From: a virus
Direction: 5' to 3' (one strand)
Virus record (IMG/VR): IMGVR_UViG_3300034358_000044
Coordinates: 64,001 to 128,000 of that record
Length of the DNA: 64,000 nt
The notes under the pieces: generated by a model
The model's input: only the letters and a program-made list of their open reading frames with translations
Told to the model about the DNA's origin: nothing
The model's database searches: none
Shown: piece after piece, positions 21,493 through 61,526 of the stretch
Position numbering within the stretch: the stretch's first letter is position 1
Layout: each line of letters starts with the position of its first letter
Program-made: the position numbers and the translations under genes

Positions 21493-21503
21493 GTTGCCTC
21501 CCA

Positions 21504-21530
21504 TTCAGCTCGTGAATCCCACGAGCAAGG
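21504..21530 (-). promoter_or_regulatory. Circularly permuted Ro-binding hairpin in the rsr leader, adjacent to the RBS
   Basis: CCUU-GCUCGUG-GGAUU-CACGAGC-U-GAA directly followed by UGGGAGGCAAC-AUG. Confidence 0.6.
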
Positions 21531-22572: not shown

Positions 22573-22648
22573 AAAAGCTGTGGGATAGATTTCATCCCTG
22601 TAAAACCTTATGCCGAACTTCTTCGGACTTTTGAATAGCAGTGGTGAA

Positions 22649-22722
22649 CGTCCTCGGTGAGACTCGAACTCACTACCCATTTCTTAGAAGGAAATTGCTC
22701 TATCCAGATGAGCTACGAGGAC
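22649..22722 (-). tRNA. tRNA-Arg(TCT)
   Basis: Cloverleaf; AUUUC-CU UCU AA-GAAAU. Confidence 0.9.
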
Positions 22723-22724
22723 AG

Positions 22725-22810
22725 TGGAAGACTGAGGACTCGAACCTCAACCCCTTGCGGAATCGCACGGTTTAGCAAACCGGCCAGGGACCTCCCCTGG
22801 TTAGCCTTCC
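22725..22810 (-). tRNA. tRNA-Ser(GCT)
   Basis: Cloverleaf with long variable arm; anticodon GCU. Confidence 0.9.
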
Positions 22811-22815
22811 AACAG

Positions 22816-22899
22816 CGGAGAGAGGAGGATTCGAACCTCGGCCGACTTGCATCAACCAGCAGCTTTCCAAGCTGCCTCCTGACCATCAGGTCACTCTCC
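22816..22899 (-). tRNA. tRNA-Ser(GGA)
   Basis: GCAGC-UU GGA AA-GCUGC; long variable arm. Confidence 0.9.
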
Positions 22900-22903
22900 A
22901 AAG

Positions 22904-22989
22904 CGGAAGACGGAGGTATCGAACCCCACACCCTTACAGGAGCGCACTCGTTTCGAGCGAGGCCTGGTCCCATGACCAGTTCATCTTCC
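22904..22989 (-). tRNA. tRNA-Ser(CGA)
   Basis: CUCG-CU CGA AA-CGAG; long variable arm. Confidence 0.85.
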
Positions 22990-23081
22990 AAAGCTCCCCC
23001 CAGATGCGCCCTGGAGGACCGGCGGGGCCTGTAGGTTCCCTGAGCCCCTAGCTGTCGCCAGTTCGTGAGCTCAGAGTACAG

Positions 23082-23166
23082 CGGAGGGCGGAGGTATCGA
23101 TCCCCACACCGTTTCGGGTGTCATCAGTTTTCAAGGCTGCGTCGCTTCCCAAGCGATTCACCCTCC
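23082..23166 (-). tRNA. tRNA-Ser(TGA)
   Basis: Loop CU UGA AA; long variable arm. Confidence 0.85.
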
Positions 23167-23711
23167 TAGTCAGATTCCAGCTCCCCGTTCCAGTAGGAGA
23201 CATCCCGGAGCCAGTTCTTCCAGCTTTCCGGCATGCCCTTCCTGAACGTGAAGGTCAGCCTCATCGTGTCCGGCAACTTCTTGGGACGCACCGGAGTAGA
23301 GAACAGCTTCATGCCGGCCTGCTCAGGTGTACGTCCGCCCTTCTTCTGGTTGCAGGGCACGCAAGCGATGACGATGTTCTCCCACCGAGTCTGACCGCCA
23401 TGCGCCCGGGGAACGACATGGTCGTAGGTGGACTCCTGCCTGGGCACCTTGGAGTGGCAGTACTGGCAGCGACCTTGGTCCCTCGTGTAGACGTTCTCAC
23501 GAGAGAACTTGATGGCCCTCTTCTTCCCGATGATGCGCTTCAGGAAGCGAATGACGGAAGGCACCTTGAACTCCAGGGTGACAGAACGGACGGTCCAGTC
23601 CTCGTACTCCTCGACGATCTCGACCTTGTTCTCCCAGAGAAGCGTGATGGCCCGTTGCCAAGGGATCCTGGCCACCGGCTCAAATGATTGCGACAATACC
23701 AGCGTGTCCAT
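23166..23711 (-). CDS. Free-standing HNH endonuclease
   Basis: RDQGRCQYC...TYDHVVPRAHGGQTRWENIVIACVPCNQKKG; ATG 23711 with GGAGG. Confidence 0.9.
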   Translation of the reverse strand: MDTLVLSQSFEPVARIPWQRAITLLWENKVEIVEEYEDWTVRSVTLEFKVPSVIRFLKRIIGKKRAIKFSRENVYTRDQGRCQYCHSKVPRQESTYDHVVPRAHGGQTRWENIVIACVPCNQKKGGRTPEQAGMKLFSTPVRPKKLPDTMRLTFTFRKGMPESWKNWLRDVSYWNGELESD

Positions 23712-23738
23712 GACCAGCCTCCTTTGACTACGAGTGTG

Positions 23739-23817
23739 TGCCCCAGGAGGGAATCGAACCCTCATGCCGAAGCAGTGGATTTTGAATCCACCGTGTCTAC
23801 CGTTCCACCACCGGGGC
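23739..23817 (-). tRNA. tRNA-Leu(CAA)
   Basis: GUGGA-UU CAA AA-UCCAC. Confidence 0.9.
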
Positions 23818-23823
23818 CCTACT

Positions 23824-23905
23824 TGGATGAAGAGGGACTCGAACCCTCATGAGCAAGCTCGCCGGCTTCTAGGGCCGGAGTGTCTACCAGTTCCACCATT
23901 CATCC
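23824..23905 (-). tRNA. tRNA-Leu(TAG)
   Basis: CCGGC-CC UAG AA-GCCGG. Confidence 0.9.
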
Positions 23906-23908
23906 ATG

Positions 23909-23991
23909 TGATCGAGAAGGGACTTGAACCCTTACGGTGTTACCCGCCTGCCCCTCAAGCAGGTGCGTCTACCAATTTCCGCCACTCGATC
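23909..23991 (-). tRNA. tRNA-Leu(GAG)
   Basis: CCUGC-UU GAG GG-GCAGG. Confidence 0.9.
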
Positions 23992-23995
23992 AATG

Positions 23996-24078
23996 TGCCC
24001 AGAGCGAGAATCGAACTCGCACGGTTTTACCCGCCAGACTCTGAATCTGGTGCGTCTACCAAGTTTCGCCACCTGGGC
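23996..24078 (-). tRNA. tRNA-Leu(CAG)
   Basis: CCAGA-UU CAG AG-UCUGG. Confidence 0.9.
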
Positions 24079-24083
24079 AACTG

Positions 24084-24155
24084 TACTGGCAGAGGGATTC
24101 GGACCCCCGACATCTTGGGTGTAGGCCAAGCGCTCTACCTCTGAGCTATGCCAGC
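24084..24155 (-). tRNA. tRNA-Val(TAC)
   Basis: CUUGG-CC UAC AC-CCAAG; T-loop UCCGAAU. Confidence 0.85.
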
Positions 24156-24217
24156 ATGTTGAGGACTTGGTAGCGCAAGTTGCCTCTGAACCTCTTCCCT
24201 TTCGGGTGCTACGGGTG

Positions 24218-24288
24218 TCGTGAGTGACAGAGTTGAACTGTCCTTCCAGGCTTATGAGGCCCGTGTCTTACCGATAGACGAACTCACG
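24218..24288 (-). tRNA. tRNA with CAT anticodon (elongator Met or Ile2)
   Basis: CGGGC-CU CAU AA-GCCUG. Confidence 0.8.
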
Positions 24289-24297
24289 TACTGCACA

Positions 24298-24371
<74 letters not shown>

Positions 24372-24372
24372 A

Positions 24373-24445
24373 CGCTCTTGGAGGGATTCGAACCCCCGAC
24401 TTCCTCTTTAGGAAAGAGGCGGTCTATCCACTGACGTACAAGAGC
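24373..24445 (-). tRNA. tRNA-Arg(CCT)
   Basis: CCUCU-UU CCU AA-AGAGG. Confidence 0.9.
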
Positions 24446-24450
24446 AACAG

Positions 24451-24522
24451 CGCCCTGCCGAGGAGTTGAACCTCGCACTATCCCAGGTTCGTAGCCTGAG
24501 GTCTGGATCCGCCAGGCAGGGC
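24451..24522 (-). tRNA. tRNA-Arg(ACG), atypical short D arm
   Basis: UCAGG-CU ACG AA-CCUGG. Confidence 0.75.
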
Positions 24523-24525
24523 ATG

Positions 24526-24594
24526 AGCCCTATCGGAGAGTTGAACTCCATCTTTCGCCTTCGGAGGGCGAAGTCCAGATCCGCTGGATAGGGC
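24526..24594 (-). tRNA. tRNA-Arg(CCG), atypical short D arm
   Basis: UUCGCC-CU CCG AA-GGCGAA. Confidence 0.75.
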
Positions 24595-24792
24595 CTACTT
24601 CTTTCTACTTCTCGGAGAGGCTCTTGGTTTGGGGACCAGAGTAGGCCCGTCGTAGCCGATACCGGCTTCCAAGAGGCGCTCCAGACGCATCCATTTCTCT
24701 CTGTCGTAGCCGTCTGTTCCGACGTCACGAGTCCAAAGCTCGTGGAAGAGCACTCGTGCTTCTGCCTTCTCTTCTTTTTTCAAGCGGTGCAT
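24595..24792 (-). CDS. Hypothetical protein
   Basis: ORF MHRLKKEEK... fills the gap between two tRNAs. Confidence 0.5.
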   Translation of the reverse strand: MHRLKKEEKAEARVLFHELWTRDVGTDGYDREKWMRLERLLEAGIGYDGPTLVPKPRASPRSRKK

Positions 24793-24795
24793 GAG

Positions 24796-24867
24796 TGCTC
24801 CCGATGGGAATCGAACCCAATGCCTCGTCCTTACCAAGGACGTGCTCTGCCGTAGAGCTACAGGAGC
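24796..24867 (-). tRNA. tRNA-Thr(GGT)
   Basis: CGUCC-UU GGU AA-GGACG. Confidence 0.9.
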
Positions 24868-25086
24868 GTACTACAGGTAGCTGACACACTTGCCTTTGGG
24901 AGGTGGTGGTCCGTCTGGTGTTCTGCCCCGTGCCATGGATGGCATCCGAACTCCGTGCTTTGTTCGGCGTCGTCTTTTCCCGTGTGTCGGAAGGTGAGGT
25001 GCATCACGTACTTCCTCCCCTGGATCCACCGGGGAGGCGTCTGTATGAGCCGTGGGCACGCCTCACTTGCTACTAGTCCGGCTACC

Positions 25087-25305
25087 CTAATCGTGACTGC
25101 AGGTGAGCTTCAGTGGATCGTGTCGAACGAAGATGCCCAGGACGGTCTTGTTGCCGCAGAAGCAGCACTCACCCGGGGGCTCTTTCGTCATGAGGGGAAG
25201 GCGCACTTCAACTTCGCCCTCTGGAGTCTTGGAGTAGTTCTTGGCGAGCCAGCAGTCGCCACACATCCGGTGGGTCCATTTGAGGATCCGCTCTGCAGGA
25301 GGCAT
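25087..25305 (-). CDS. Small Cys-rich (Zn-binding) hypothetical protein
   Basis: CGDC...CCFCG...C-terminal CSH. Confidence 0.55.
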   Translation of the reverse strand: MPPAERILKWTHRMCGDCWLAKNYSKTPEGEVEVRLPLMTKEPPGECCFCGNKTVLGIFVRHDPLKLTCSHD

Positions 25306-25314
25306 TCAGCTTCC

Positions 25315-25551
25315 TTACCACATCACGAGCTGGGCCTTGATCTTCTTGGCCTTGAGTCTGGCCAATGCCCTCTTCGCTTCCTTCTTGTCGTCCTTGAACT
25401 CGAACAGCAAGTCCCGCATCTTCGTCTCCATCAGAACGCCGGCCCCCATTTCTGGGCGTCCGACGATTCCCTTGATGACGGAGTCGAGATCGAACTTCGG
25501 GTACCTATCGATCGAGTAGTATACGGTCAGGACGTAAGACTCTTTGGCCAC
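25315..25551 (-). CDS. Hypothetical protein
   Basis: ATG with GGAG RBS; phage-like codon usage. Confidence 0.6.
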   Translation of the reverse strand: MAKESYVLTVYYSIDRYPKFDLDSVIKGIVGRPEMGAGVLMETKMRDLLFEFKDDKKEAKRALARLKAKKIKAQLVMW

Positions 25552-25581
25552 CAGAGCACTCCTCTCATTACGGGTTGAACA

Positions 25582-25654
25582 TGGAGCTGGACGGGATCGA
25601 ACCGACGACTTCCAGATTGCAAACCTGGCGCTCTCCCAACTGAGCTACAGCCCC
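25582..25654 (-). tRNA. tRNA-Ala(TGC)
   Basis: GGGGCUG acceptor with G3:U70; anticodon UGC. Confidence 0.92.
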
Positions 25655-25662
25655 TTCTACAG

Positions 25663-25733
25663 TGGACATGGAGAGAATCGAACTCTCGTCTCTCGGATGC
25701 GAACCGAGTGCTCTCCCGCTGAGCTACACGCCC
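25663..25733 (-). tRNA. tRNA-Ala(CGC)
   Basis: CUCGG-UU CGC AU-CCGAG; G3:U70. Confidence 0.9.
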
Positions 25734-25738
25734 TTCAG

Positions 25739-25811
25739 TGGACCTTGACGGGATCGAACCGTCTACCTCTTGGATGCCATCCAAGTGCTCTCCCAGATGA
25801 GCTAAAGGCCC
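25739..25811 (-). tRNA. tRNA-Ala(GGC)
   Basis: CUUGG-AU GGC AU-CCAAG; G3:U70. Confidence 0.9.
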
Positions 25812-25816
25812 AGACT

Positions 25817-25945
25817 ACGCGAGCAAGGAATCTGCCACTCCGATTTATACCGACGCTCTACCATTGAGCTACTCTCGATGCTTTGAGAGATGGGCATCGA
25901 ACCCACAACCTTCGGTTCCAGATAATGGAATGACTTCGGCTCGCT
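25817..25945 (-). ncRNA. YrlA-type Y RNA #1 (Ro stem plus permuted tRNA-like domain)
   Basis: 5' GCGAGC-C-GAAG / 3' CCUU-GCUCGC; T arm GUGGG-UUCGAUG-CCCAU, then capped acceptor-like stem CUCUC/GAGAG, then D arm UA-GCUC-AAUGGUA-GAGC; no anticodon arm. Confidence 0.85.
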
Positions 25946-25946
25946 G

Positions 25947-26018
25947 TGCTCCAAGAAGGAGTTGAACCTTCTACCTTTCCCATGTCAAGGGAACGATCTA
26001 CCGGTGATCTACTGGAGC
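25947..26018 (-). tRNA. tRNA-Val(GAC)
   Basis: UUCCC-UU GAC AU-GGGAA. Confidence 0.9.
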
Positions 26019-26080
26019 AGATGTACGGTGGCTTCAAGGCTTCCGCCCTTGGCCTGCATTTGTCTCCCGTACGAGACCTG

Positions 26081-26153
26081 TGCTGACCCTCGGAATCGAA
26101 CCGAGATGTTCCGCTCTTCAGGCGGACGCATGAACCATCACTGCCAGGTCAGC
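26081..26153 (-). tRNA. tRNA-Phe(GAA)
   Basis: UCCGC-CU GAA GA-GCGGA. Confidence 0.88.
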
Positions 26154-26199
26154 ATACTCCAGAGGGACTCTCGCCCCTCTGGGCGCTACGAAAGATGTG

Positions 26200-27114
26200 C
26201 TAGGTCTTGCGAGCCGAGGCCCCGTTGTTCTGGGTCTGGATGAGGTTCTGCACGTCGGCCAGGGACTTGGTCGAAGCCGCCGCCTCCAGCGCCTTGGTGG
26301 CGATGTCGGTGACCCTCTTGTCGGCGTCGTTGATGCGGCCCTGAAGCTGGCCGATGACCATGTCCTGGTTGGCCAGGCGGTCGTTGAGACCCTTGATGGT
26401 GTTGTCCGCCACCAGCTTCGCCGTGTCGGCGTCCTTCTGGAGGAGGGAGAGCTTGTGCTCGTAGTCCCTCTTCACGGAGCTGCCCACGATGGCCTCCGCC
26501 TTCTTCACTTCGGAGTCGATCTTTGCCGGGAAGGCAGTGACCTGCGCCCTGAGCTCGGTGATCTCGTTCTCCTGCTTCTTGAGGTTCTCCTCCCGCTCCT
26601 TGAAGCCCTTCTCCATCAGCTCCCTGCGATCTCGATCCTGAGCCGCCGTGACACGAATCTCCTCTTCGTGGCGGAGCTGCTCGGAACGACGAGCCTGCTG
26701 CAGGTCGTAGGTGTACTGCTCCTCGTCCTTCGTGCGCTCCAGCTCCTGCGAGGCCTTGGCCGCCGACACCTCCTGCTGGTAGCGATCGCTCTCCCGGTCG
26801 ATCTCCGCCTTCCGATCCTCGAAGGCGGCCTCCAGCTCGTCGAAGGCCTTCAGGACGTTCTCGGCCTCGTAGATGCCGGTGAGCTCCTGCTTCTTCAGAT
26901 CGACCGCCTGGGAGACCGTGTTGAGCTCCTGGAGCTGCTCCTGAAGCTTGCTGGTCACGTCGGACAGGGTCTTGCCGATGCTCAGCTGCGCCTCGGTCAC
27001 CTTCTTCGCAGCAGCATCGATGGTGAGGTTGGCGGCGGTCTTCAGGGTTGCTTCGTTCTTCACCGTCGTGGCCACATCGGACCTGGTGACGGCCTTCTTC
27101 TTCGGAGTTGCCAT
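26200..27114 (-). CDS. Long coiled-coil protein (304 aa)
   Basis: Heptad-rich E/K/Q/A sequence with strong phage codon bias. Confidence 0.8.
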   Translation of the reverse strand: MATPKKKAVTRSDVATTVKNEATLKTAANLTIDAAAKKVTEAQLSIGKTLSDVTSKLQEQLQELNTVSQAVDLKKQELTGIYEAENVLKAFDELEAAFEDRKAEIDRESDRYQQEVSAAKASQELERTKDEEQYTYDLQQARRSEQLRHEEEIRVTAAQDRDRRELMEKGFKEREENLKKQENEITELRAQVTAFPAKIDSEVKKAEAIVGSSVKRDYEHKLSLLQKDADTAKLVADNTIKGLNDRLANQDMVIGQLQGRINDADKRVTDIATKALEAAASTKSLADVQNLIQTQNNGASARKT

Positions 27115-27219
27115 TCTGTATTCCCCTCGGCGTGTTGGCCTAAGCTAAATTGCTTGGCCACACCCTTCTACCGAAAGGGTCTGACATTTTGCTTTTCTCC
27201 CTTTTGTTCTCAGCACTTG

Positions 27220-27291
27220 CGGTCTGTACGGGAATCGGACCCGTCTCGGCACCGTGACAGGGTGCTCGCCTCACCAGATGCGTAACAGACC
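27220..27291 (-). tRNA. tRNA-Asp(GTC)
   Basis: GCACC-CU GUC AC-GGUGC; T-loop UCCGAUU. Confidence 0.85.
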
Positions 27292-27380
27292 AACTCGCCT
27301 CTCCTCCCGGTCGTAGACGAGGACAGGTCGTCATCCCGGTGAAGTCCTTCGGCACGGGAGAGGCCCCGAGCCTGAATCTG

Positions 27381-27452
27381 GGCGAAGTACGGGACTCGAA
27401 CCCGTGTTTCAAGAGTCACAATCTTGCGTCCTGCCGCTGGACGAACTCCACC
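27381..27452 (-). tRNA. tRNA-His(GTG)
   Basis: CAAGA-UU GUG AC-UCUUG; G-1:C73. Confidence 0.9.
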
Positions 27453-27586
27453 ATACAACTGTTGAACCACCCTCTTCGCCCGGCCTTGTGTTGGAAAGGG
27501 CAAGCCCTCTGGGTCTCTCACCCAGTGAAACAGCTCACTTCAACTTCGAAGCTGCTGCACCCTCCGGCGCCTACTTAGGTTCAACA

Positions 27587-27658
27587 TGCACCAAGAAGGA
27601 ATTGAACCTTCCACCTCACGCTTATCAGGCATGCGCTCTACCAATGAGCTACTGGTGC
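27587..27658 (-). tRNA. tRNA-Ile(GAT)
   Basis: CAUGC-CU GAU AA-GCGUG. Confidence 0.9.
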
Positions 27659-27664
27659 GAACTT

Positions 27665-27874
27665 CTACTTCTTGATCTCCTTCCAGTTACCACTGAACCT
27701 TTCTTCCCAATATCCAACTGGAATGGACAGATCATCAGACCCGCCTTCTGGAGGAAGCCCCTTCATCCAGTAAGGTCTGTGTCCCAACATCGTGAGGAGT
27801 TCCTTTTCATTGACGATTCTAGGACTACGCTCAACAACACGTTGACCACCAAGATGAAGCTCGAATGTTCTCAT
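27665..27874 (-). CDS. Hypothetical protein
   Basis: ORF MRTFELHLGG... fills the gap between two tRNAs. Confidence 0.45.
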   Translation of the reverse strand: MRTFELHLGGQRVVERSPRIVNEKELLTMLGHRPYWMKGLPPEGGSDDLSIPVGYWEERFSGNWKEIKK

Positions 27875-27875
27875 G

Positions 27876-27949
27876 TCGAGGAGACAGGATTTGAACCTGC
27901 GATCTCTTGGATCCGAACCAAGCGCGATACCAGTCTTCGCTACTCCTCG
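27876..27949 (-). tRNA. tRNA-Pro(CGG)
   Basis: CUUGG-UU CGG AU-CCAAG. Confidence 0.9.
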
Positions 27950-28050
27950 ATGGCCGGCAGTACCCGACGTACACTCGGGTCTCTTGGCTGTGCGCTCCCT
28001 GTTGCCAGGTGCCACTGTACCGGAGCCACTCAACTGAGTGGGTGAAGCTG

Positions 28051-28324
<274 letters not shown>

Positions 28325-28343
28325 GTGTCCTCGTGAAGATGAA

Positions 28344-28476
28344 GATGGGCAAGGTATTAGACTTGGGGTTTAAGCGCTCTACCGCTGAGCTACCCCGAGA
28401 TAGAATCCCGGGGGCAAGGAGTTGAACCTCGCGACCTCTCCATTATGAGTGGTAATCCAAATCAGTTCAGCCCATC
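28344..28476 (-). ncRNA. YrlA-type Y RNA #2
   Basis: 5' GAUGGGC-U-GAAC / 3' CCUU-GCCCAUC; T arm CGAGG-UUCAACU-CCUUG, capped acceptor-like stem CCCCGGGA/UCUCGGGG, D arm UA-GCUC-AGCGGUA-GAGC; no anticodon arm. Confidence 0.85.
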
Positions 28477-28478
28477 AG

Positions 28479-28552
<74 letters not shown>

Positions 28553-28561
28553 ATGCTACAG

Positions 28562-28634
28562 TACCGCGTACGGGAGTCGAACCCGTCTCTCCAGCTTGAA
28601 AGGCTAGCGGCCTCACCAGAAGCACGAACGCGGC
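28562..28634 (-). tRNA. tRNA-Glu(TTC)
   Basis: CUAGC-CU UUC AA-GCUGG. Confidence 0.88.
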
Positions 28635-28637
28635 ATA

Positions 28638-28709
28638 TGACCTTGGGGAGAATCGAACTCCCGTTCCCAGGATGAGAACCTGGTGTCCGAACCACTAGAC
28701 GACAAGGCC
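28638..28709 (-). tRNA. tRNA-Glu(CTC)
   Basis: CCAGG-UU CUC AU-CCUGG. Confidence 0.9.
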
Positions 28710-28713
28710 TACT

Positions 28714-28785
28714 AGACGAGGGTGAGAGTCGAACTCACTCATGACGGTTTTGCAGACCGTCGCCTTCCCACTTGGCTACCCCGTC
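28714..28785 (-). tRNA. tRNA-Cys(GCA)
   Basis: ACGGU-CU GCA AA-ACCGU; U73. Confidence 0.9.
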
Positions 28786-29632
28786 ATTCTTCTGCTCAGG
28801 TGTGCTTGTGGCCATACTTCGATGGTTCACTCAGCTTTCGAAGGGTACCGTCATCGTGATTCTCGTACTCGCTTGCGCGCTGGTTGGAGCCCTCGACTTC
28901 GTATCGCCTCCCGAAGTGGCGTTGACAGCCCCCTACCTCGCCATCATCAGCTTCGCCGTCTGGTACGGAGGGCGCTTCCACGGGTACGCAGTTGGAACCT
29001 TTGGCATCATCACCCGCTTCATCAGTGCCCAGCAGCTCCTGCACAACAGGCCCTACCTGAGCGCCTGGAACGTCGTCCTTGAGGCGTTGGTGCTGCTGGG
29101 TGCTGCCACCATCATCTTCCAGTTCAAGTCCGCCCTGGAGCACGAGAAGGCCTTCTCCCGGAAGGACCTGCTGACCGGGTTGCTCTCCCGCAGAGGCTTT
29201 GATGAGGTGGTGGAGCGCGAGCTCAATCGTTCGAAGCGCTACAAGACGCCCATCTGCGTGGCCCTCATGGACGTGGACAAGTTCAAGAGGGTGAATGACG
29301 TTCAGGGGCACAAGGCAGGGGACATGCTACTAAGGGGGCTCGGTCAGTGCCTCACCAAGGCCGTCCGCAATGTGGATGCTGTGGCCAGATGGGGCGGTGA
29401 CGAGTTCATCCTTCTGATGCCCGACACCTCTCTCAAGGATGCAGAGTTGGCCGTTGCCAGAGTGAAAGAGGAGCTTGCTCTCTTTTTCCAGCTCTGGGGC
29501 ATCGGTCTCTCCATTGGCGTCTCGGAGATTGGCCCCAAGGGAATCGACCAGGCTCTTCACGATGCGGATGTGAAGATGTACAACCTCAAGAAGCTCTCCA
29601 GGCAGGGCTCGAACCTGCGACCCCCGAGTTAA
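28772..29632 (+). CDS. Membrane-anchored diguanylate cyclase (GGDEF); start codon uncertain
   Basis: About 4 N-terminal TM segments; DLLTGLLSRR, DVDKFKRVNDVQGHKAGD, RNVD I-site, RWGGDEF, SIGVS, ADVKMY. Confidence 0.9.
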   Translation: MATPSFFCSGVLVAILRWFTQLSKGTVIVILVLACALVGALDFVSPPEVALTAPYLAIISFAVWYGGRFHGYAVGTFGIITRFISAQQLLHNRPYLSAWNVVLEALVLLGAATIIFQFKSALEHEKAFSRKDLLTGLLSRRGFDEVVERELNRSKRYKTPICVALMDVDKFKRVNDVQGHKAGDMLLRGLGQCLTKAVRNVDAVARWGGDEFILLMPDTSLKDAELAVARVKEELALFFQLWGIGLSIGVSEIGPKGIDQALHDADVKMYNLKKLSRQGSNLRPPS

Positions 29633-29667
29633 CAGCTCGGTGCTGCTACCAACTGAGCTACTGGAGA
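29594..29667 (-). tRNA. tRNA-Asn(GTT)
   Basis: CCGAG-CU GUU AA-CUCGG. Confidence 0.9.
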
Positions 29668-29682
29668 ATACCACTACGACTG

Positions 29683-29754
29683 TGCGCCCCCTCAGGGTCG
29701 AACTGAGACGTAAGCGCTTATGAGGCACTGGCTCTACCATTGAGCTAGAGGCGC
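29683..29754 (-). tRNA. tRNA with CAT anticodon (Ile2 or elongator Met)
   Basis: AGUGC-CU CAU AA-GCGCU. Confidence 0.85.
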
Positions 29755-29756
29755 GA

Positions 29757-29829
29757 AGCCCTGAGCCAGATTCGAACTGGCCACCTACTGATTACAAATC
29801 AGTTGCTCTGCCGAATGAGCTACCAGGGC
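29757..29829 (-). tRNA. tRNA-Thr(TGT)
   Basis: ACUGA-UU UGU AA-UCAGU. Confidence 0.9.
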
Positions 29830-29833
29830 ATTG

Positions 29834-29905
29834 CTGGGACACCAGGATTCGAACCTGGATCTGCCCGCTTCAAAGGCGGTCGTCTTACCTTTGGACGATG
29901 TCCCA
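29834..29905 (-). tRNA. tRNA-Gln(TTG)
   Basis: U1-A72; loop CU UUG AA. Confidence 0.88.
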
Positions 29906-29908
29906 ATG

Positions 29909-29979
29909 CTGAGGGTCAGGGATTCGAACCCCGATGATCAGTGTCAGAGACTGACATCCTACCGTTGGATGAACCCTCA
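29909..29979 (-). tRNA. tRNA-Gln(CTG)
   Basis: UCAGU-CU CUG AC-ACUGA. Confidence 0.9.
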
Positions 29980-30001
29980 AGATGCTACGGAGATTTGGTC
30001 A

Positions 30002-30075
30002 GGGGGTAAGCAGGTCTTGAACCTGCATCTGGACCGTCATGGGGTCCCGCTCTACCAACTTGAGCTACTACCACC
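30002..30075 (-). tRNA. Atypical tRNA-His(ATG)
   Basis: GGACC-CC AUG AC-GGUCC; G-1:C73; C33; 2:71 mismatch. Confidence 0.7.
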
Positions 30076-30355
30076 CGGGCACCCTTCACAGAATGCCATT
30101 CTCCCTACCCGTTTCCTAGGACGGAAGAGAGGAACTGATTGAAGATTGTGTGAGGTTTCCTCATGGGCCTGCTGAAGCTCTGGGCTTGTCACCCAGAGTT
30201 CCCATGAGGAGAACCCGACGGCCATTGCTGGCAATCACTCTCCTGGGGGATCGAACCCGTACAGCTCCCCCCCGAAAGAACACGATCTCTTCATGTGCTT
30301 TCGGCGAGGAGAGGGGGCGCCAGCCCCCATCTGGAGAAGACCTAAAAGTTGTGTG

Positions 30356-30427
30356 AGCGGGTAGAGGGACTCGAACCCTCGACATTCTGCTTGGAAGGCA
30401 GAAGCTCTACCACTGAGCTATACCCGC
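30356..30427 (-). tRNA. tRNA-Gly(TCC)
   Basis: GCGGGUA acceptor; UCUGC-CU UCC AA-GCAGA; U73. Confidence 0.92.
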
Positions 30428-30716
30428 GTACTGACCCCTGAGGGGCCCTTCGATGTTGGACCACGACGTTGTGCAATCCGGCTGAGTCGCGAGCTCATCC
30501 TCTCGGGGCTGGTACTGAGGGGTTCCCTGGGACGTGAAGATCCCGTGGCATCGAGCAGCTTCACTTCTTGAGGAACGCCACCCCGTTGTGCTTCCCGTAT
30601 GGTTCGGGCCTGGGTCTTGGGGCTCTGCGTCCCCTCACCAGTTCGCTTACACCATGCCGTACTGCGTGTCTTCATTGTATGTAATCACTGGTCCTCCTTG
30701 TGCGTTACATGACGTG

Positions 30717-30788
30717 TGCTCCCGCTGGGAATCGGACCCAGGACCCTTCGCTTAAAAGGCGAGTGCTCTACCACTGAGCTACGAGAGC
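30717..30788 (-). tRNA. tRNA-Lys(TTT)
   Basis: Loop CU UUU AA; T-loop UCCGAUU. Confidence 0.85.
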
Positions 30789-30835
30789 GCGACTGGCGCA
30801 CCGCAGCTTGGTTTCTGTCTCATGTTGTTCTCCTG

Positions 30836-30908
30836 TGGGCTCGGAGGGAATTGAACCCTCAACCTCGTGCTTAAGAGGCACTTGCTCTACCAATTGAGCT
30901 ACGAACCC
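30836..30908 (-). tRNA. tRNA-Lys(CTT)
   Basis: Loop CU CUU AA. Confidence 0.9.
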
Positions 30909-30949
30909 ATGCGCCTCTTCCCGAACTGCGGAAGAGACGTTCACCACTA

Positions 30950-30968
30950 CTATTCAGTTCTCAAAGAA
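30950..30968 (-). promoter_or_regulatory. rrn boxA-like antitermination motif
   Basis: TTCTTTGAGAACTGAATAG resembles the TCTTTGAAAACTGAA boxA-type motif of many bacterial rRNA operons. Confidence 0.45.
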
Positions 30969-30975
30969 ACCTCAG

Positions 30976-31062
30976 TGGGTGAGGTGGGGATCGAACCCAC
31001 CGGTATCTCGTAGAGAGACCAGATTTACAGTCTGGCGGGGCACCATTGCCCACGTCTCACCC
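30976..31062 (-). tRNA. tRNA-Tyr(GTA)
   Basis: CCAGA-CU GUA AA-UCUGG; long variable arm. Confidence 0.88.
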
Positions 31063-31077
31063 ATATTCGAATGTCCA

Positions 31078-31148
31078 AGCGGCTAGTGGGAATCGAACCC
31101 ACTTGTTCAGGCTGGCAACCTGATGCTCAACCAATGAGCGATAGCCGC
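31078..31148 (-). tRNA. tRNA-Gly(GCC)
   Basis: UCAGG-UU GCC AG-CCUGA. Confidence 0.9.
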
Positions 31149-31159
31149 ATATTCATTTG

Positions 31160-31232
31160 AGCCCAAGAGAGGAATCGAACCCCCGACCGTCTGCTTACGA
31201 AGCAACTGCTCTTCCAACTGAGCTACTTGGGC
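31160..31232 (-). tRNA. tRNA-Thr(CGT)
   Basis: Loop UU CGU AA. Confidence 0.88.
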
Positions 31233-31236
31233 ACTG

Positions 31237-31307
31237 CACGCCGCGTAGGAATCGAACCCACGTCTTCAGTTTTGGAGACTGACGTCCTTCCACTGGACGA
31301 GCGACGT
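31237..31307 (-). tRNA. tRNA-Trp(CCA)
   Basis: UCAGU-CU CCA AA-ACUGA; G73. Confidence 0.9.
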
Positions 31308-32640: not shown

Positions 32641-32826
32641 TCAGATGTCCTCGCCCTTCAGTGTGGACCTGCCAGATGCCCTGGCGCGGTTGATGGCCGC
32701 CTGGATGATCATGTGAACCTGCTGGTTGACTGCATCGATGAAGTCGTCTCCAGAACGCATCTCTGCGTCCTTCACTGCCTGCTTCACCTTCGAGACCACT
32801 ACGAGAACATCCACTTCTTTCGCCAT
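32641..32826 (-). CDS. Bacterial-type single histone-fold protein (Bd0055/HMf-like), 61 aa
   Basis: VLVVVSKVKQAVK...MRSGDDFIDAVNQQVHMIIQAAINRARASGRSTLKGEDI; helix1-helix2-RxTxxxxD pattern. Confidence 0.85.
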   Translation of the reverse strand: MAKEVDVLVVVSKVKQAVKDAEMRSGDDFIDAVNQQVHMIIQAAINRARASGRSTLKGEDI

Positions 32827-32835
32827 TGCGTGCTC

Positions 32836-33642
32836 CTACAAGTCCTTCGAGTCGATGAACCAAGACACCAGGAAGCTGATGCCCTTGATGGTGTGGCCGT
32901 TCTTGGTGAAGATGCGGCCGATGACCATCGGGTCGCCCTTCGTGGCAGAACGCTGTGAGGGAGCAGCTCCCAGTACGTCGAAGAACTTCTCCGAGAGTGC
33001 CTTGGCCGTAGCGTTGAGGACTTCCGGCTTGGCCAGCTTGAAGGGGAAGTCGATGTTCTCCTTGAACTCGGAGGCCCAGGCTTCCGTCACGTAGACGGGC
33101 TTCCCCTCCTTGTCCTTGTCCATGTGAACGTCGCTCTCGATGAGAGCCTTCGGGCTGACGAATCGACCCTCACTCAGGGCCGGGTTGTTGCTCTCCTGGT
33201 CGGGGATGAACGGCATGTCCGACCTGTAGGAGTTCTTCCGATCCGCCCACAGCTTCTTGGGGTTCTTCGCCGTGGTGCGAATGGCGAAGATGTCCATGTC
33301 CATGTCGGGGATGATGGTGTAGCCGGCCTTCAGCGCCGCATGGACCTTCTCGTAGAACTGCTTCTGCTTCTTGGCCTTGGTGACGATGGCCTCGAACGGC
33401 TTGCTCGCCCACTTCCTCTTCTTGGCGATGTCGAGGTTGTCCTCTGCGGCCTTGATGTCCACGTCGATCCTCTGGATCTTCGCAGTGGCCCAGTTCTGGA
33501 GCTTCTTCTGCGCCAGGTTCATTTGCTCCAGGGTGCTGGCGGCGACGAAGACGTCATCACCTTCAGAGTCCTCTGTGAGCTTTGCCGTCACGTCCATAGG
33601 AGCTGGAAGCGCCTTCTGGACGACTTCCTTCTCTTCGTTCAT
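32836..33642 (-). CDS. Hypothetical protein
   Basis: 268-aa ORF with phage codon bias. Confidence 0.75.
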   Translation of the reverse strand: MNEEKEVVQKALPAPMDVTAKLTEDSEGDDVFVAASTLEQMNLAQKKLQNWATAKIQRIDVDIKAAEDNLDIAKKRKWASKPFEAIVTKAKKQKQFYEKVHAALKAGYTIIPDMDMDIFAIRTTAKNPKKLWADRKNSYRSDMPFIPDQESNNPALSEGRFVSPKALIESDVHMDKDKEGKPVYVTEAWASEFKENIDFPFKLAKPEVLNATAKALSEKFFDVLGAAPSQRSATKGDPMVIGRIFTKNGHTIKGISFLVSWFIDSKDL

Positions 33643-33877: not shown

Positions 33878-34969
33878 CTACTTGGGGGACACAGGGCCGA
33901 TGAAGCCCTGGAGGAACGTCTGGAAGCTGGCCAGGGTCCCGGCGTTGCCCTTGGTGGCGGGCTGGAGCTGGGGGTTGGTGAGGTACATGTGGTGCAGGCT
34001 GGCCAGAATCTGGTAGCCGAGCACCCGCAGCTCATCGACATCACCCTGCAGCTTGGCGACCGCCTTGAGGGCAGCGTCGCTGTTGTGGGCGGAGATCTCC
34101 AGGCCCTTGCCCAGGGAGTCCAGCTTGGACGCCAGTCCGCCGTCCTGGGCGTGAGGCTGTGCCACCTGCTGGGGAACGAACGGAGCCATCTGGGCGACCG
34201 GAGGGACGAACTGCTGCTGGGGTGCCGGAGGCGGCCCGTTGAACTGCATCACCGGGGTAGCCGCCTGCTGAGCAGGAACCGGCTGGGGCTGGAAGCCGGG
34301 AGGGGCCATCGCAGCGGGAGGTGGAGGAGCCACGGCGTTGCCAGCAGCCGTCTTGCGCTTCCTGCCGGACACCTGCACAGCGCCGTCTGCCGGAGGTGCC
34401 TGAGGGGCGGGCTGCATCATCTGCTGCGGCGGCATCTGCATGGGCATCTGCACCTGCTGCGGAGGGATCCACTGGGCAGGAGCCTGGGGAGCCATCGGAG
34501 GAACCCCGACCGGTGCTTGGGTGAACTGCTGCAGCGGCTGCTGCTGGTAGCCGGCAGGAACCGGCATCATCTGCTGAGGCGCAGCCGGGACCTGGGCGAA
34601 CTGCTGCGGGGACATGGGCGCAGGAGCCTGGGGGACGGGTTGGAAGGACATCTGCGGACCCGCTGGGGGCTGAGCCATCTGGGGAACTCCATTCGTTGAG
34701 GGTGGGAGCTGCGGTACACCTGACGCGCCGAGATCGTTCTGGAGGTAGCCAGCAGAGATCTCGTGGTTGATGATGGCCGTCTTCACGAGCTCCCGGTTGT
34801 CGAGAGTCTCCTGGTAGGTCATCAGCGGATTGCCATCCGGCTTCTTGTAGATCATGTACGCCAGGTTTCGAACGGCTACGAACCTTGCTGCGTCCAGCTC
34901 CGTCTTCCTCTGGCTTGCAGTGGTGCCCGGTCGAGGGGCGAGTTCGTAGGTAGTGCCAGTATCAGTCAT
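33878..34969 (-). CDS. Pro/Gln-rich protein with folded N- and C-termini
   Basis: Central low-complexity P/Q/A/M region. Confidence 0.8.
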   Translation of the reverse strand: MTDTGTTYELAPRPGTTASQRKTELDAARFVAVRNLAYMIYKKPDGNPLMTYQETLDNRELVKTAIINHEISAGYLQNDLGASGVPQLPPSTNGVPQMAQPPAGPQMSFQPVPQAPAPMSPQQFAQVPAAPQQMMPVPAGYQQQPLQQFTQAPVGVPPMAPQAPAQWIPPQQVQMPMQMPPQQMMQPAPQAPPADGAVQVSGRKRKTAAGNAVAPPPPAAMAPPGFQPQPVPAQQAATPVMQFNGPPPAPQQQFVPPVAQMAPFVPQQVAQPHAQDGGLASKLDSLGKGLEISAHNSDAALKAVAKLQGDVDELRVLGYQILASLHHMYLTNPQLQPATKGNAGTLASFQTFLQGFIGPVSPK

Positions 34970-42319: not shown

Positions 42320-42763
42320 TCACTTCTGAAGCGGATCCTTGACGCGCTTCTCCCACGGCTCGACGCCGCAGAACTTGCACTTCTTCGGCTCCTCCAACTT
42401 CGATCCGCACTGAGGGCAGAGCGATCCGACAGCACCTGTCTTGTTCATTCCATCGTCTTCGAGAACAACTCCGAGCTTTTCGATCATGTGCTCCTCCGGT
42501 GCTTCAGACAGCTTCGACCCAGGCACGAACGAGTAGTGCTGGAACCTGAGCGTCGTCCTGGGGGTCAGCTCTTTTCCAAAGGCGACTCCCCCGCGAGTCT
42601 TCCTCTGCGTGAAGCGGCCGAAGCTGGGAATCTTCACCTCGCCGCCACTGACGATGATGTGCGTCTCGATGCGATTGAAGGTGGCGTAGAGAATCTCCTT
42701 CACCACCTTCTTCGGCTGACCGGTCTTCTTTGCGACTGACTCCACCAATTCGATAAACGTCAT
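42320..42763 (-). CDS. HU/IHF-like DNA-binding protein with in-frame C-terminal Zn ribbon
   Basis: MTFIELVESVAKKTG...VKIPSFGRF; C-terminal CPQCGS...CKFCG. Confidence 0.75.
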   Translation of the reverse strand: MTFIELVESVAKKTGQPKKVVKEILYATFNRIETHIIVSGGEVKIPSFGRFTQRKTRGGVAFGKELTPRTTLRFQHYSFVPGSKLSEAPEEHMIEKLGVVLEDDGMNKTGAVGSLCPQCGSKLEEPKKCKFCGVEPWEKRVKDPLQK

Positions 42764-42789
42764 ACCACTCCTGTCAACGTGTGAGTGTA

Positions 42790-43539
42790 CTACTTCGCAG
42801 TGCCCCAAGTATGCCCCGAACCAAGACCGAGAGTAGCTTTGTAGTCGTTGAAGAGCTTCAAGCGTCTCTTGATGCCTTCTTTAGCCTTTCGGTCGATTCG
42901 CACAAACTTCCCGCTCTGGAAGATTGCCCAGCCCCTATGGATCATCATGTGGTGGGTAGGGCACAGAAGGTGGGTCTTGGACTGCTTGTTAGAGCCCTTC
43001 CTAGTAAACTCCTCGTGGTGTTCATCGAGGATGAGTGTTTCTCCACAGACCTCGCAAGCCCCACGAAGCCCTAGAAGGTTTTTGTAGACCCCCTTCAGTC
43101 TTCGGTGGGAATGCTTGTTTCCGTGCTCTTTGCAGCAGTACCTTTTCCCGCTACCTCCATTACCCCCAAAACCGGGTCTCCTACCTGGGTGAGTCATCCA
43201 AATCTTGTTGTCGCACTCAGGAAGAGCACAAAGAACAAGAGTTGAGATTACCCCCCGCTCCTCACGGGAGAAGTGTAACTTCATATGCTGTCTACAGCAG
43301 AATCGCCCCCTACCCATCGTAGATTGGAAGTCCTTACCGCACTCAGGAAGTTGGCACTTTTTCTGAATATCTACTCGGGTGGGGAATCCTCTACTCTTGA
43401 GCAGGTAGGCGATGTTCTCTGTGGTGGTCCCTCGTTTCTTGGCTAGTTCTTTCAGGGACCACCCTTTCTGGAGCAGCTTCCAAAGCTTCTCTATTTCACT
43501 CGTAGGAAGCTTGCTAGTGGACCACTGTTTGGGTCTCAT
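42790..43539 (-). CDS. HTH/Zn-finger HNH homing endonuclease-like protein
   Basis: N-terminal HTH, repeated C..PEC motifs, CEVCG...HH...LCPTHHMMIH; AT-richer than its flanks. Confidence 0.7.
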   Translation of the reverse strand: MRPKQWSTSKLPTSEIEKLWKLLQKGWSLKELAKKRGTTTENIAYLLKSRGFPTRVDIQKKCQLPECGKDFQSTMGRGRFCCRQHMKLHFSREERGVISTLVLCALPECDNKIWMTHPGRRPGFGGNGGSGKRYCCKEHGNKHSHRRLKGVYKNLLGLRGACEVCGETLILDEHHEEFTRKGSNKQSKTHLLCPTHHMMIHRGWAIFQSGKFVRIDRKAKEGIKRRLKLFNDYKATLGLGSGHTWGTAK

Positions 43540-43578
43540 ACTTCGTATTGTACCTCATTTCCCATCGTTGAAGAAGTC

Positions 43579-45705
43579 CTATTTAGCCGTTCCCCAAGTA
43601 TGCCCGCTACCGGCAGATGCCGGCAGAGGAACTCGAAGCTGAAGCTCACCGAACGGGTGCTCCATCAGGTACTTCGCCCTGGCTTTCACCTTGGCGGCAT
43701 TCTCCTCTGGGCACTCGAAGATGAGCTCGTCGTGAATCTGCAGCAGGAGTTCAGCGCCGAGCTGCTTCAACTCTTCATCGTCTTCACACAGGAGCATGGC
43801 CGCTTTGGCGATGTCTGAGGCCGTGCCTTGAATGATGCTGTTCACCGCCTGCCGCTCGGCCTGAGCGGAGTCCTTCTTCTGCATGCCAGTGAGAGAACCG
43901 AAGCGGCGCAGACGACCGACGATGGTCGTCACGATACCAGTCCGCCAGAGCTCCATCTTCGTCGCCTCGATGTACGTCTTCACACCGGGGAAGACGCTGA
44001 ACCACTTCTTGATGAGCTGCATGCCCTCTTCGTCGCTCACGAAGCGCTTCAGTTCCTGGGTGAGGTTGGCCGCGAGGTGAGACCCACCGATGCCGTAGAT
44101 GATGCCGAAGCCTGTCGCCTTTGCAGCCTGCCGGTAGAACAGGAGCTCGATTTCCCTCTCCGTCAGTGGGGCACTTCTCCTTCCCTCGTTGACAGCCTTC
44201 TCAGCCTTCTTGGCCGCCATGACGTCGTCGTAGGGAATACCGTACATCTCCGCCACCGTGAGGCAGTGAAGATCGGTACCATCTCGGATGGCACCAATCA
44301 TCTTCTCGTCGCCAGAGAAGTGCGCCATCAGACGCATCTCCAACTGCTCGTAGTCGGCTACGACGAGGATTTTCCTCGCAGCATGAATGAACGCCTCTCG
44401 AATCTTGAAGGCGTCCTCACTGAGGCGGGGGATGTTCTGCAGGTTGGGGTTCGACGAGCTCAGGCGCATGGTGACCGCGCCCGTCTGATTCAGCCTGGTG
44501 TGGATGCGGTAGAACGGGTCCAGGTGTTCCTGCAGGCCCTCGACGTAGGTGCCGTGAGTCTTCTTGATGGACCTGTACCGCAGCAGTTTCATCGCCCACT
44601 CGTCTCCCTGGCCAGCCCAGAAGTCGAGAGTGTCGAAGTCTGTGGAGGGCTTCTTGATTCCCGACGTCCCTCCCTTGGTCATCTTCACCGGTTCCTTCTT
44701 GAGGTGGTCGAAGAAGAACCAGGAGACGTCGGCAGTGGCGTTGAGGTTGATGACCCTTCCCGTGTACCGGTTGAAGTCCCTCTGAATCTCGTCCATCTCC
44801 TTCCGCATGGGGCCGTCCTGTTCCATCAGGTGGCCCTTGTCCACGGTGATGCCTCGGCGTTCCAGCTTCCAGAGCAGCTTGGTGAAGGGCACCTCCACTC
44901 GATGGAAGTAGTCCCTCAAATTCTTCGCTGAAGAGAAGTTCGAGTAGATGGGTTGCTGGGTCAGCAGCTCATCGAAGTAGAGCCGCAGCATGTGGGAGTT
45001 GTAGGCGTCGAGAGAGGCGTAGTCAGTGGCCGACTCGAACTTGTGAAGAGCTTCCTGGTAGGCGTGAATCAGTGCCTCGTAGTCAAGCTGCTTCTCCCGT
45101 GCGTCCTCTGAGTTGTACCAGTCCGTCGCAGGTGGCGGTGGAGGAGCTGGTACGGTGAACGCCTTCCTCACCATGTCTCCCACGGTGGGGTTGAGGTTTC
45201 TCCCGGTGAGCTTGTCGGTCTTCTTGGGGAGAATCTTGCCGAAGGTGTCCTGAAAGGTTGGAGTCGTTCTTCCGAACCTGTCGCTGACACTCTCTTTCAG
45301 ACCGTGACGCCCTTGGTTGTTCTCGTTGTCGAGGAAGCTCTGGACGATGGTGTCTCGCCAGTCTCCTGCTTTCGACAGGTCGGCTCCCGTGTTGGCGAAC
45401 ATGTGGGCATCGAACTTCGCGTTGGTGAAGTCGAGGTTGATGTCCGGGTTTTCGAGAATCGGCTCCTTGAAGATGGGGATGAACTCTGCCGGAAGACAGA
45501 TGCGTTGTTGTGCATCCGCCAGCGACCAGACGATGACCCGGTCACTCTTCGTGTCGAGTCCCGACGTCTCAGAGTCGATGCCGAGTCCGTTGTTCAGCTC
45601 GTGTGATTGGAGGAAGTACTTCACCCATTCTCGTGCTTCTACTTCTCTCCCCACCCAGCGTCCGGAGGGGATACTCATGTCGAACGTGAAAGCCATGATC
45701 TTCAC
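43579..45705 (-). CDS. polA: Family A DNA polymerase (3'-5' exonuclease + polymerase)
   Basis: IDSETSG, NAKFD, YASLDA; RLSSSNPNLQN, DYEQLEMR, RQAAKATGFGIIYG, NSIIQGTASD, QIHDEL. Confidence 0.96.
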   Translation of the reverse strand: MKIMAFTFDMSIPSGRWVGREVEAREWVKYFLQSHELNNGLGIDSETSGLDTKSDRVIVWSLADAQQRICLPAEFIPIFKEPILENPDINLDFTNAKFDAHMFANTGADLSKAGDWRDTIVQSFLDNENNQGRHGLKESVSDRFGRTTPTFQDTFGKILPKKTDKLTGRNLNPTVGDMVRKAFTVPAPPPPPATDWYNSEDAREKQLDYEALIHAYQEALHKFESATDYASLDAYNSHMLRLYFDELLTQQPIYSNFSSAKNLRDYFHRVEVPFTKLLWKLERRGITVDKGHLMEQDGPMRKEMDEIQRDFNRYTGRVINLNATADVSWFFFDHLKKEPVKMTKGGTSGIKKPSTDFDTLDFWAGQGDEWAMKLLRYRSIKKTHGTYVEGLQEHLDPFYRIHTRLNQTGAVTMRLSSSNPNLQNIPRLSEDAFKIREAFIHAARKILVVADYEQLEMRLMAHFSGDEKMIGAIRDGTDLHCLTVAEMYGIPYDDVMAAKKAEKAVNEGRRSAPLTEREIELLFYRQAAKATGFGIIYGIGGSHLAANLTQELKRFVSDEEGMQLIKKWFSVFPGVKTYIEATKMELWRTGIVTTIVGRLRRFGSLTGMQKKDSAQAERQAVNSIIQGTASDIAKAAMLLCEDDEELKQLGAELLLQIHDELIFECPEENAAKVKARAKYLMEHPFGELQLRVPLPASAGSGHTWGTAK

Positions 45706-61372: not shown

Positions 61373-61447
61373 GCTCGCGTAACTCAAGGGTAGAGTGCTC
61401 TCGGTACTAGGCCGAAAGAAGTGCGGGTTCGAATCCCGTCGCGGGTG
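61373..61447 (+). tRNA. tRNA-like gene with CUA (amber) anticodon and extended anticodon stem
   Basis: Acceptor GCUCGCG/CGCGGGU, D stem ACUC/GAGU, CUCUCGG-UA CUA GG-CCGAAAG, T arm GCGGG-UUCGAAU-CCCGU. Confidence 0.7.
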
Positions 61448-61526
61448 CTTGACACGAAGTTCTGAAGGGCTAGGTTCTTCCCCATGATCGACAGCGCCCT
61501 AGTCTGAAGCTGAGCTGACGCACTAC

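Follow-up and report, generated by a model that had tools for sequence, protein, structure and literature searches.

Histones with a truncated third helix (α3 histones) have been characterised in bacteria and archaea only since 2023. The classes described by Schwab et al. 2024 (PMC11390915) comprise the face-to-face (FtF) tetramers, the bacterial dimers of the HBb type, the ZZ and Rab-GTPase fusions, and the 'phage histones', which carry a C-terminal tetramerisation helix. HTkC from Thermococcus kodakarensis (9F2C) is an archaeal, cellular, basic and highly expressed chromatin protein of 59 residues, solved as a tetramer. Its C-terminal carboxylate pairs with R45, and the R45A mutant is a dimer (bioRxiv 10.64898/2025.12.06.692711). 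The gene of HLp from Leptospira perolatii (9QT0, 9QT1 and 9QT2) lies beside that of SMC in the bacterial chromosome. R49 anchors the hydrogen-bond network between the two HLp dimers, and five residues (S14, K15, K17, K21 and R59) account for 52% of the DNA-binding energy (PMC12701072). HBb, or Bd0055, from Bdellovibrio (8CMP, 8FVX and 9EZZ) is strictly dimeric, and its K52 and R57 are DNA contacts.

Viral proteins of this kind have been sought in IMG/VR 4 with Bd0055 and the Schwab profiles (hLife 2025, PMC13681535). In that survey, 84 bacterial-like proteins were found, and 289 non-redundant Caudoviricetes histone-fold proteins fell into seven clusters. The classes described include a face-to-face one (VFFHFP) and a Bd0055-like one (BBVHFP), and all the proteins are known from structure prediction only. 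No experimental work on a phage α3 histone came up in a search of the literature. An α3-truncated histone gene in the genome of an uncultured phage is analysed below and compared with these systems.

The phage record and the histone locus

The window, that is, the whole stretch of 64,000 nucleotides that was analysed, corresponds to bases 64001 to 128000 of a 195,735-bp IMG/VR virus record (IMGVR_UViG_3300034358_000044), for which CheckV gives a completeness of 100%. That the record is a phage rests on this estimate, on a large terminase gene (TerL; phrog_675, E 1.3e-64) and on a weak portal-like match. A search of the record with PF05065 (capsid) gave no match. The replication and recombination genes encode a family-A DNA polymerase (PolA), a primase, a DnaB-like helicase and a UvsX-like recombinase. 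A Cas4-like nuclease, a thymidylate synthase and RusA are also encoded. Polymerases of deposited phages all show less than 35% identity to this one. A preliminary description of this DNA, made from the sequence, had reported a 61-aa phage-encoded protein. The open reading frame is indeed present, on the minus strand, and its translation includes the fragments quoted there; the attribution to a phage is borne out by a 195.7-kb tailed-phage record with TerL, PolA, DnaB, UvsX and 42 tRNAs. The features of the window are collected in Table 1.

Table 1. Positions of the histone gene, its neighbours and other features within the window.
Feature	Positions	Strand	Remarks
α3-truncated histone-fold gene, 61 aa	32641-32826	-	intact ORF, ATG start, TGA stop
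Shine-Dalgarno AGGAG	32833-32837	-	6 nt 5' of the histone ATG; read from the sequence
Upstream ORFan, 268 aa	32836-33642	-	kept next to the histone gene by related uncultured phages
Downstream ORFan, 161 aa	32154-32639	-	close to the histone gene on related contigs; 35-38% identity
Small ORFan, 72 aa	31934-32152	-	part of the conserved cluster
Small ORFan, 110 aa	31592-31924	-	part of the conserved cluster; tRNA array next
tRNA array, 41 genes	22648-31307	-	directly downstream of the histone cluster; all 20 amino acids
tRNA with two-base anticodon	22724-22810		assigned by ARAGORN
42nd tRNA gene	61373-61448	+	
HU/IHF-like protein	42320-42808	-	N-terminal half HU domain, C-terminal Cys-pair zinc-ribbon-like tail
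363-aa ORF	33878-34969	-	two genes upstream of the histone gene
Ro60 orthologue	19861-21504	-	TROVE E 1e-39, Ro60 vWA E 5e-64
PolA	43579-45705	-	
249-aa ORF	42790-43539	-	beside PolA
30-nt direct repeat	42787-42816 and 43576-43605		83% identical, 789 nt apart

The Shine-Dalgarno sequence of the histone gene overlaps the TAG stop codon of the upstream 268-aa ORF, which suggests that translation of the histone is coupled to that of this ORF. On the other side, a single nucleotide separates the histone TGA from the ATG of the 161-aa ORF. From this overlap and this gap, the histone gene lies inside a compact, probably translationally coupled minus-strand operon. A scan for sigma-70-like promoters found 0 sites where 0.9 was expected, and terminator-like sites were at chance level.

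Short contigs from metagenomes encode the three nearest relatives of the histone, which are 71, 60 and 53% identical to it. Homologues of the 268-, 161-, 72- and 110-aa ORFs are found there as well, in the same or a slightly rearranged order, and the histone gene thus belongs to a conserved cluster of a small group of uncultured phages. Homologues of the 268-aa ORFan in the related contigs are 55-62% identical (tblastn, E 1e-36 to 1e-108). This protein has no Pfam, PHROG or usable Atlas match, and its own structural model is poor. The 161-aa ORFan gave sub-threshold family matches only, and the neighbours of the histone gene returned nothing above threshold when compared with Pfam and PHROGs.

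Pairwise comparison of the histone gene with three syntenic homologues gave dN/dS values of 0.18-0.46, which are approximate as dS is about 1. The gene evolves under purifying selection. DNA nearly identical to the record was found in contigs of several peat-metagenome runs, and no RNA run is listed among those that contain it. In four further peat runs, the contigs match the histone gene exactly and so offer no variation to be read. The phage record contains one histone-fold gene, so that any oligomer would be homomeric.

The preliminary description had placed an HU homologue 10 kb away. Such a gene is present on the same strand, at a distance of 9.5 kb, but its product has only half an HU domain, joined to the zinc-ribbon-like tail. 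It matches PF00216 with 33.1 bits (cut-off 22.4) over profile positions 1-56 of 90 alone, and HU-HIG with 22 bits, under the cut-off. The protein is a candidate for a second DNA-architectural protein of the phage. The combination of half an HU domain with a zinc-ribbon-like tail is atypical among phage DNA-binding proteins.

Elsewhere in the window, the phage encodes an orthologue of Ro60. No family match was obtained for the 363-aa ORF, the centre of which is a long stretch of low complexity rich in Gln, Pro and Ala. PolA and the neighbouring 249-aa ORF, which is Cys-rich and weakly HNH-like, share about ten C-terminal residues, and the 30-nt direct repeat spans the 3' ends of both genes. The arrangement resembles the insertion of a mobile endonuclease gene behind polA, accompanied by duplication of the polA end.

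Homologues of the phage histone

When the protein was compared with the sequences of the PDB by phmmer, four significant matches were obtained, all of them α3-truncated histones: HTkC (9f2c, E 1.5e-7), HLp (9qt0, E 3.4e-6) and the two Bd0055/HBb entries 8cmp (E 3.3e-5) and 8fvx (E 3.8e-5). The resemblance to Bd0055 that had been pointed out before is therefore well beyond chance. A search of 1.84 billion representatives with a profile built from the phage histone and its two nearest relatives retrieved 543 relatives (E ≤ 1e-3). Those inspected are singlets of about 60 residues and fused doublets of about 120-130 residues with a common G-R-x-T...D ending, and the α3-type length and motif were found in all of them.

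The best profile matches after the protein's own clade (P0004-P0009) are fused doublets of about 120-130 residues, with two α3 folds per chain. One of these, on archaeal-looking contigs, adjoins a TFIIB gene. The doublets P0005 and P0011 start with hydrophobic leaders resembling signal peptides, which would be odd for DNA-binding histones.

The homology is visible only in PDB sequences and large protein libraries. Pfam and PHROGs gave no meaningful match to the 61-aa protein, and tblastn against 50,697 deposited phages gave none. Megablast of 12 kb returned tRNA matches only, a word-indexed protein search retrieved 2 relatives only, and a pattern scan with the clade alignment yielded no confirmed locus in IMG/VR or GTDB genomes. 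The nearest Atlas clusters are mostly from Planctomycetota and Myxococcota, and one is labelled Uroviricota. The relatives of one close cellular singlet are scattered over Woesearchaeota, Methanosarcinales, Planctomycetota and one Nitriliruptorales MAG, so that no donor can be named. FtF histones are spread across domains, and this distribution is consistent with that.

Fold, conserved residues and charge

The structure of the phage histone was predicted with AlphaFold2 using an alignment of 70 singlet sequences (pLDDT 92.1). The model consists of helix α1 (residues 11-20), a 24-residue helix α2 (27-50) and a helix α3 reduced to three residues (58-60), the protein stopping at residue 61. It superimposes in Foldseek onto HLp with TM scores of 0.87-0.95 and an rmsd of 0.8 Å, onto HBb with TM scores of 0.85-0.89 and onto HTkC with TM scores of 0.83-0.90, the rmsd across all three being 0.8-1.2 Å. 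The nucleosomal histones HMfB and HPhA reach a TM score of about 0.6 only. The top Foldseek matches are all histones, and the seven at E ≤ 1e-3 are each a chain of HLp, HBb or HTkC. This model replaces an earlier one made with 3 sequences, which had a pLDDT of 72 and a Foldseek E-value of about 0.1, again with histones as the only matches. The preliminary description had spoken of a short-helix-2 bacterial histone and had proposed comparing a predicted structure with Bd0055 and HMf. The comparison confirms the histone fold, with its truncated α3 and TM scores of 0.85-0.95 against α3 histones. The outcome that would have refuted the proposal, a predicted structure other than a histone-fold dimer, did not occur. 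The fold and the assignment to the α3-truncated histone family are secure.

The RxTxxxxD motif, or RD clamp, is present as R53, T55 and D60. Among the 70 relatives, T55 is invariant, and D60 and R53 are conserved in 68 and 60 sequences, respectively. The lysines of α1 are also widely kept (K13 in 61/70, K15 in 60/70 and K19 in 56/70). According to correspondences read by hand from the phmmer alignments, as are all those with HTkC, HLp and HBb given here, the five main DNA-binding residues of HLp (S14, K15, K17, K21 and R59) align with S12, K13, K15, K19 and K57; four are identical, and R59 is replaced by lysine. These five residues of the phage protein are candidate DNA contacts. R53 corresponds to R55 of HLp. 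The protein shares with HBb the truncated fold, the S-K-x-K start of α1, K16 (K19 in the phage histone), T53 (T55) and the RD clamp. The DNA contacts K52 and R57 of HBb have not been kept, being aligned with S54 and E59, respectively.

The phage histone has as many basic residues (nine K+R) as acidic ones (nine D+E), with a pI of 6.5. The four members of the phage clade have pI values of 5.7-6.5 and net charges of 0 to -1. The median pI of the 70 singlet relatives is 9.5. Six sequences fall below pI 7, and they include all four clade members. Such a neutral charge is unusual for a protein that coats DNA in bulk; the DNA-contact positions are nevertheless retained. Owing to the neutral to acidic charge of the clade, a minor alternative in which the protein mainly makes protein contacts is weighed below.

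Subtype and oligomeric state

Since the chain comprises only the 61-aa histone fold, with an intact RxTxxxxD motif, the ZZ, Rab-GTPase fusion and 'phage histone' classes are excluded. The 'phage histones' in the sense of Schwab 2024 (e.g. A0A2E7QIQ9; VTTHFP) are likewise encoded by phages and have an α3-type fold, but a long C-terminal helix for tetramerisation and the absence of RxTxxxD set them apart. Two types are left to be weighed, the FtF tetramer and the HBb-like dimer. The protein had been called Bdellovibrio-type. This is right as regards the homology to Bd0055 and the short α3 fold, but the subtype leans towards FtF rather than HBb, as suggested by sequence scores, R47, the C-terminal end, a weakly supported tree and a model with four copies.

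For each of the four phage-clade proteins, the score against an FtF reference (HTkC or HLp) exceeds that against HBb. HTkC is the best match of the phage histone, with 44-47% identity, similar length and the same RxTxxxxD clamp. R47 aligns with the tetramer-critical R45 of HTkC and with R49 of HLp, and the HBb position is occupied by serine. The C-terminus falls at the same aligned position as those of HTkC and HLp, whereas the HBb chain runs past the aligned end. The replacement of HBb K52 and R57 by Ser and Glu also speaks against an HBb-type protein. The FtF signature is incomplete, however. Its asparagine (N52 in the logo, N53 in HLp), which is present in 41 of the 70 relatives, is S51 in the phage histone, and the HLp interface residues S52, N53 and T61 are replaced by Ala, Ser and Glu. 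The asparagine is not an absolute requirement for the FtF arrangement, since HTkC has a glutamate at this position and yet is a tetramer. The arginine is found in 53/70 relatives, but two of the three closest ones have Gln (P0002) or Glu (P0003) instead, so that tetramerisation is not conserved throughout the clade.

A model of four copies was calculated with ESMFold2. It scored 0.86, the best of three controls scoring 0.02. This mark is reached by 20/30 solved homo-pairs and 1/23 solved single chains, counts that are a rough guide here as the model was made with its own alignment and with four copies rather than two. The runs agreed in at least 98% of contacts, with a partner pLDDT of at least 87. 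One contact is the handshake dimer, which involves residues 6-61, with the α2 helices crossing at residue 37 and L1 (residue 29) paired with L2 (residue 56). The other, with a different copy, involves residues 46-47, 50-51 and 57-60, which are the FtF interface positions. The score may come from familiarity of the predictor with the solved tetramers 9f2c and 9qt0, together with the make-up of the alignment, 40 of whose 70 rows bear the FtF signature.

In a maximum-likelihood tree of 73 sequences, the four phage proteins group together (SH-aLRT 75). They lie in a half of the tree with HTkC, HLp and mostly sequences bearing the R..N signature, and HBb lies in the other half; this division has weak support, as only 62 columns were available.

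The main competing explanation is a strictly dimeric histone of the Bd0055/HBb type, the isolated dimers of which would bend DNA or coat it end-on. The significant homology and nearly identical monomer fold to HBb agree with it, as do the missing FtF asparagine, the loss of the arginine in P0002 and P0003 and the weak division of the tree. The hLife 2025 survey also contains Bd0055-like viral proteins predicted to be dimers. The higher scores against HTkC and HLp, R47, the C-terminal end and, in the four-copy model, a dimer-dimer contact predicted with confidence at the FtF interface weigh against it. A strictly dimeric protein is considered unlikely, although a serious contender, and an FtF-like tetramer somewhat probable.

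Discussion

The explanation put forward is that the phage encodes its own copy of an α3-truncated histone, which would form an FtF tetramer and act as a phage-made nucleoid-associated protein; as a whole, it is regarded as moderately probable. Two chains would form the canonical histone handshake homodimer. From two such dimers, a small toroidal tetramer would most likely be built face-to-face, on the pattern of HTkC and HLp. The contact between dimers would be made by the C-terminal end of α2 (R47, A50 and S51), loop 2, the three-residue α3 and the C-terminal carboxylate. DNA would be bound irrespective of sequence by the N-terminus of α1 (S12, K13, K15 and K19) and by the L1 and L2 loops (R24-S25, T55 and K57), and would be wrapped or sharply bent; FtF tetramers as a class wrap about 60 bp. 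The protein would thus organise or compact DNA during infection, and its target in the cell may be phage or host DNA. The conjectures of the preliminary description were that it might coat or compact the phage DNA, shield it from restriction or CRISPR, or poison host chromatin. Such a role is proposed because the gene is single-copy, coupled to ORFans, and on the same strand as the replication and recombination genes, the strand that carries RusA, thymidylate synthase, the Cas4-like nuclease, UvsX, the HU-like protein, PolA, primase and DnaB.

The comparison with described proteins sets limits to the analogy. HTkC is a basic protein of cellular chromatin with a solved tetramer, whereas the phage protein is charge-neutral, comes from a bacteriophage-like genome, and has a tetramer and DNA wrapping that are predicted only. 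The gene of HLp adjoins that of SMC, and the phage gene stands among phage ORFans. The VFFHFP and BBVHFP proteins, predicted to be tetramers and dimers, respectively, are Caudoviricetes α3 singlets from the same database. The VFFHFP are described as having 5-40 N-terminal residues that form a tail rich in lysine. The phage protein lacks such a tail, its approximately ten N-terminal residues containing one lysine and two acidic residues.

It is conceivable, although improbable, that in this small phage clade an FtF histone has become charge-neutral and passes as a unit with the 268- and 161-aa ORFans, and that it functions as part of a phage-specific chromatin module rather than as a plain DNA coat. 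The histone might then join the α3 histones of a histone-bearing host, for instance a peat planctomycete, in mixed oligomers that remodel or disable the host chromatin. Alternatively, the histone and its partners might tag phage DNA that is to be replicated or packaged.

A distinctly improbable alternative is that the main target of this histone-fold protein is something other than DNA. The protein would be a decoy or poison subunit mixing with the α3 histones of the host, if present, or an adaptor working with the 268- and 161-aa ORFans. Its neutral to acidic charge, unlike that of most relatives, would fit, as would the tight linkage and translational coupling to two conserved ORFans. Planctomycetota and Myxococcota, which predominate in the nearest Atlas clusters, are moreover lineages with α3 histones of their own (PMC11390915). 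Against this, the serine and lysines of α1, the DNA-contact positions of the loops and the RD clamp are all retained, and several cellular relatives are neutral too.

That the reading frame is a chance ORF or a mis-called frame in GC-rich DNA could be entertained given the 58% GC, the many overlapping spurious ORFs on both strands and the lack of Pfam and PHROG matches, but it is refuted by the significant homology to four solved histones and the 543 profile matches, by dN/dS values below 0.5, by the Shine-Dalgarno sequence and coupled neighbours, by the conserved synteny and by the confident fold.

The novelty suggested in the preliminary description was overstated, since FtF-like and Bd0055-like histone-fold proteins of phages from IMG/VR had already been published in the hLife 2025 survey. 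The gene is a good further example of the α3 histones catalogued from metagenomes in 2025, not a discovery. It adds one member to classes already known from the same database and would not surprise a specialist. Its value lies in being a clean candidate for work at the bench: the genome is estimated to be complete, the gene is single-copy and compact with conserved partner genes, and the protein carries the experimentally defined tetramer arginine and DNA-contact residues. The phage histone could thereby reveal how a virus of prokaryotes makes use of a histone.
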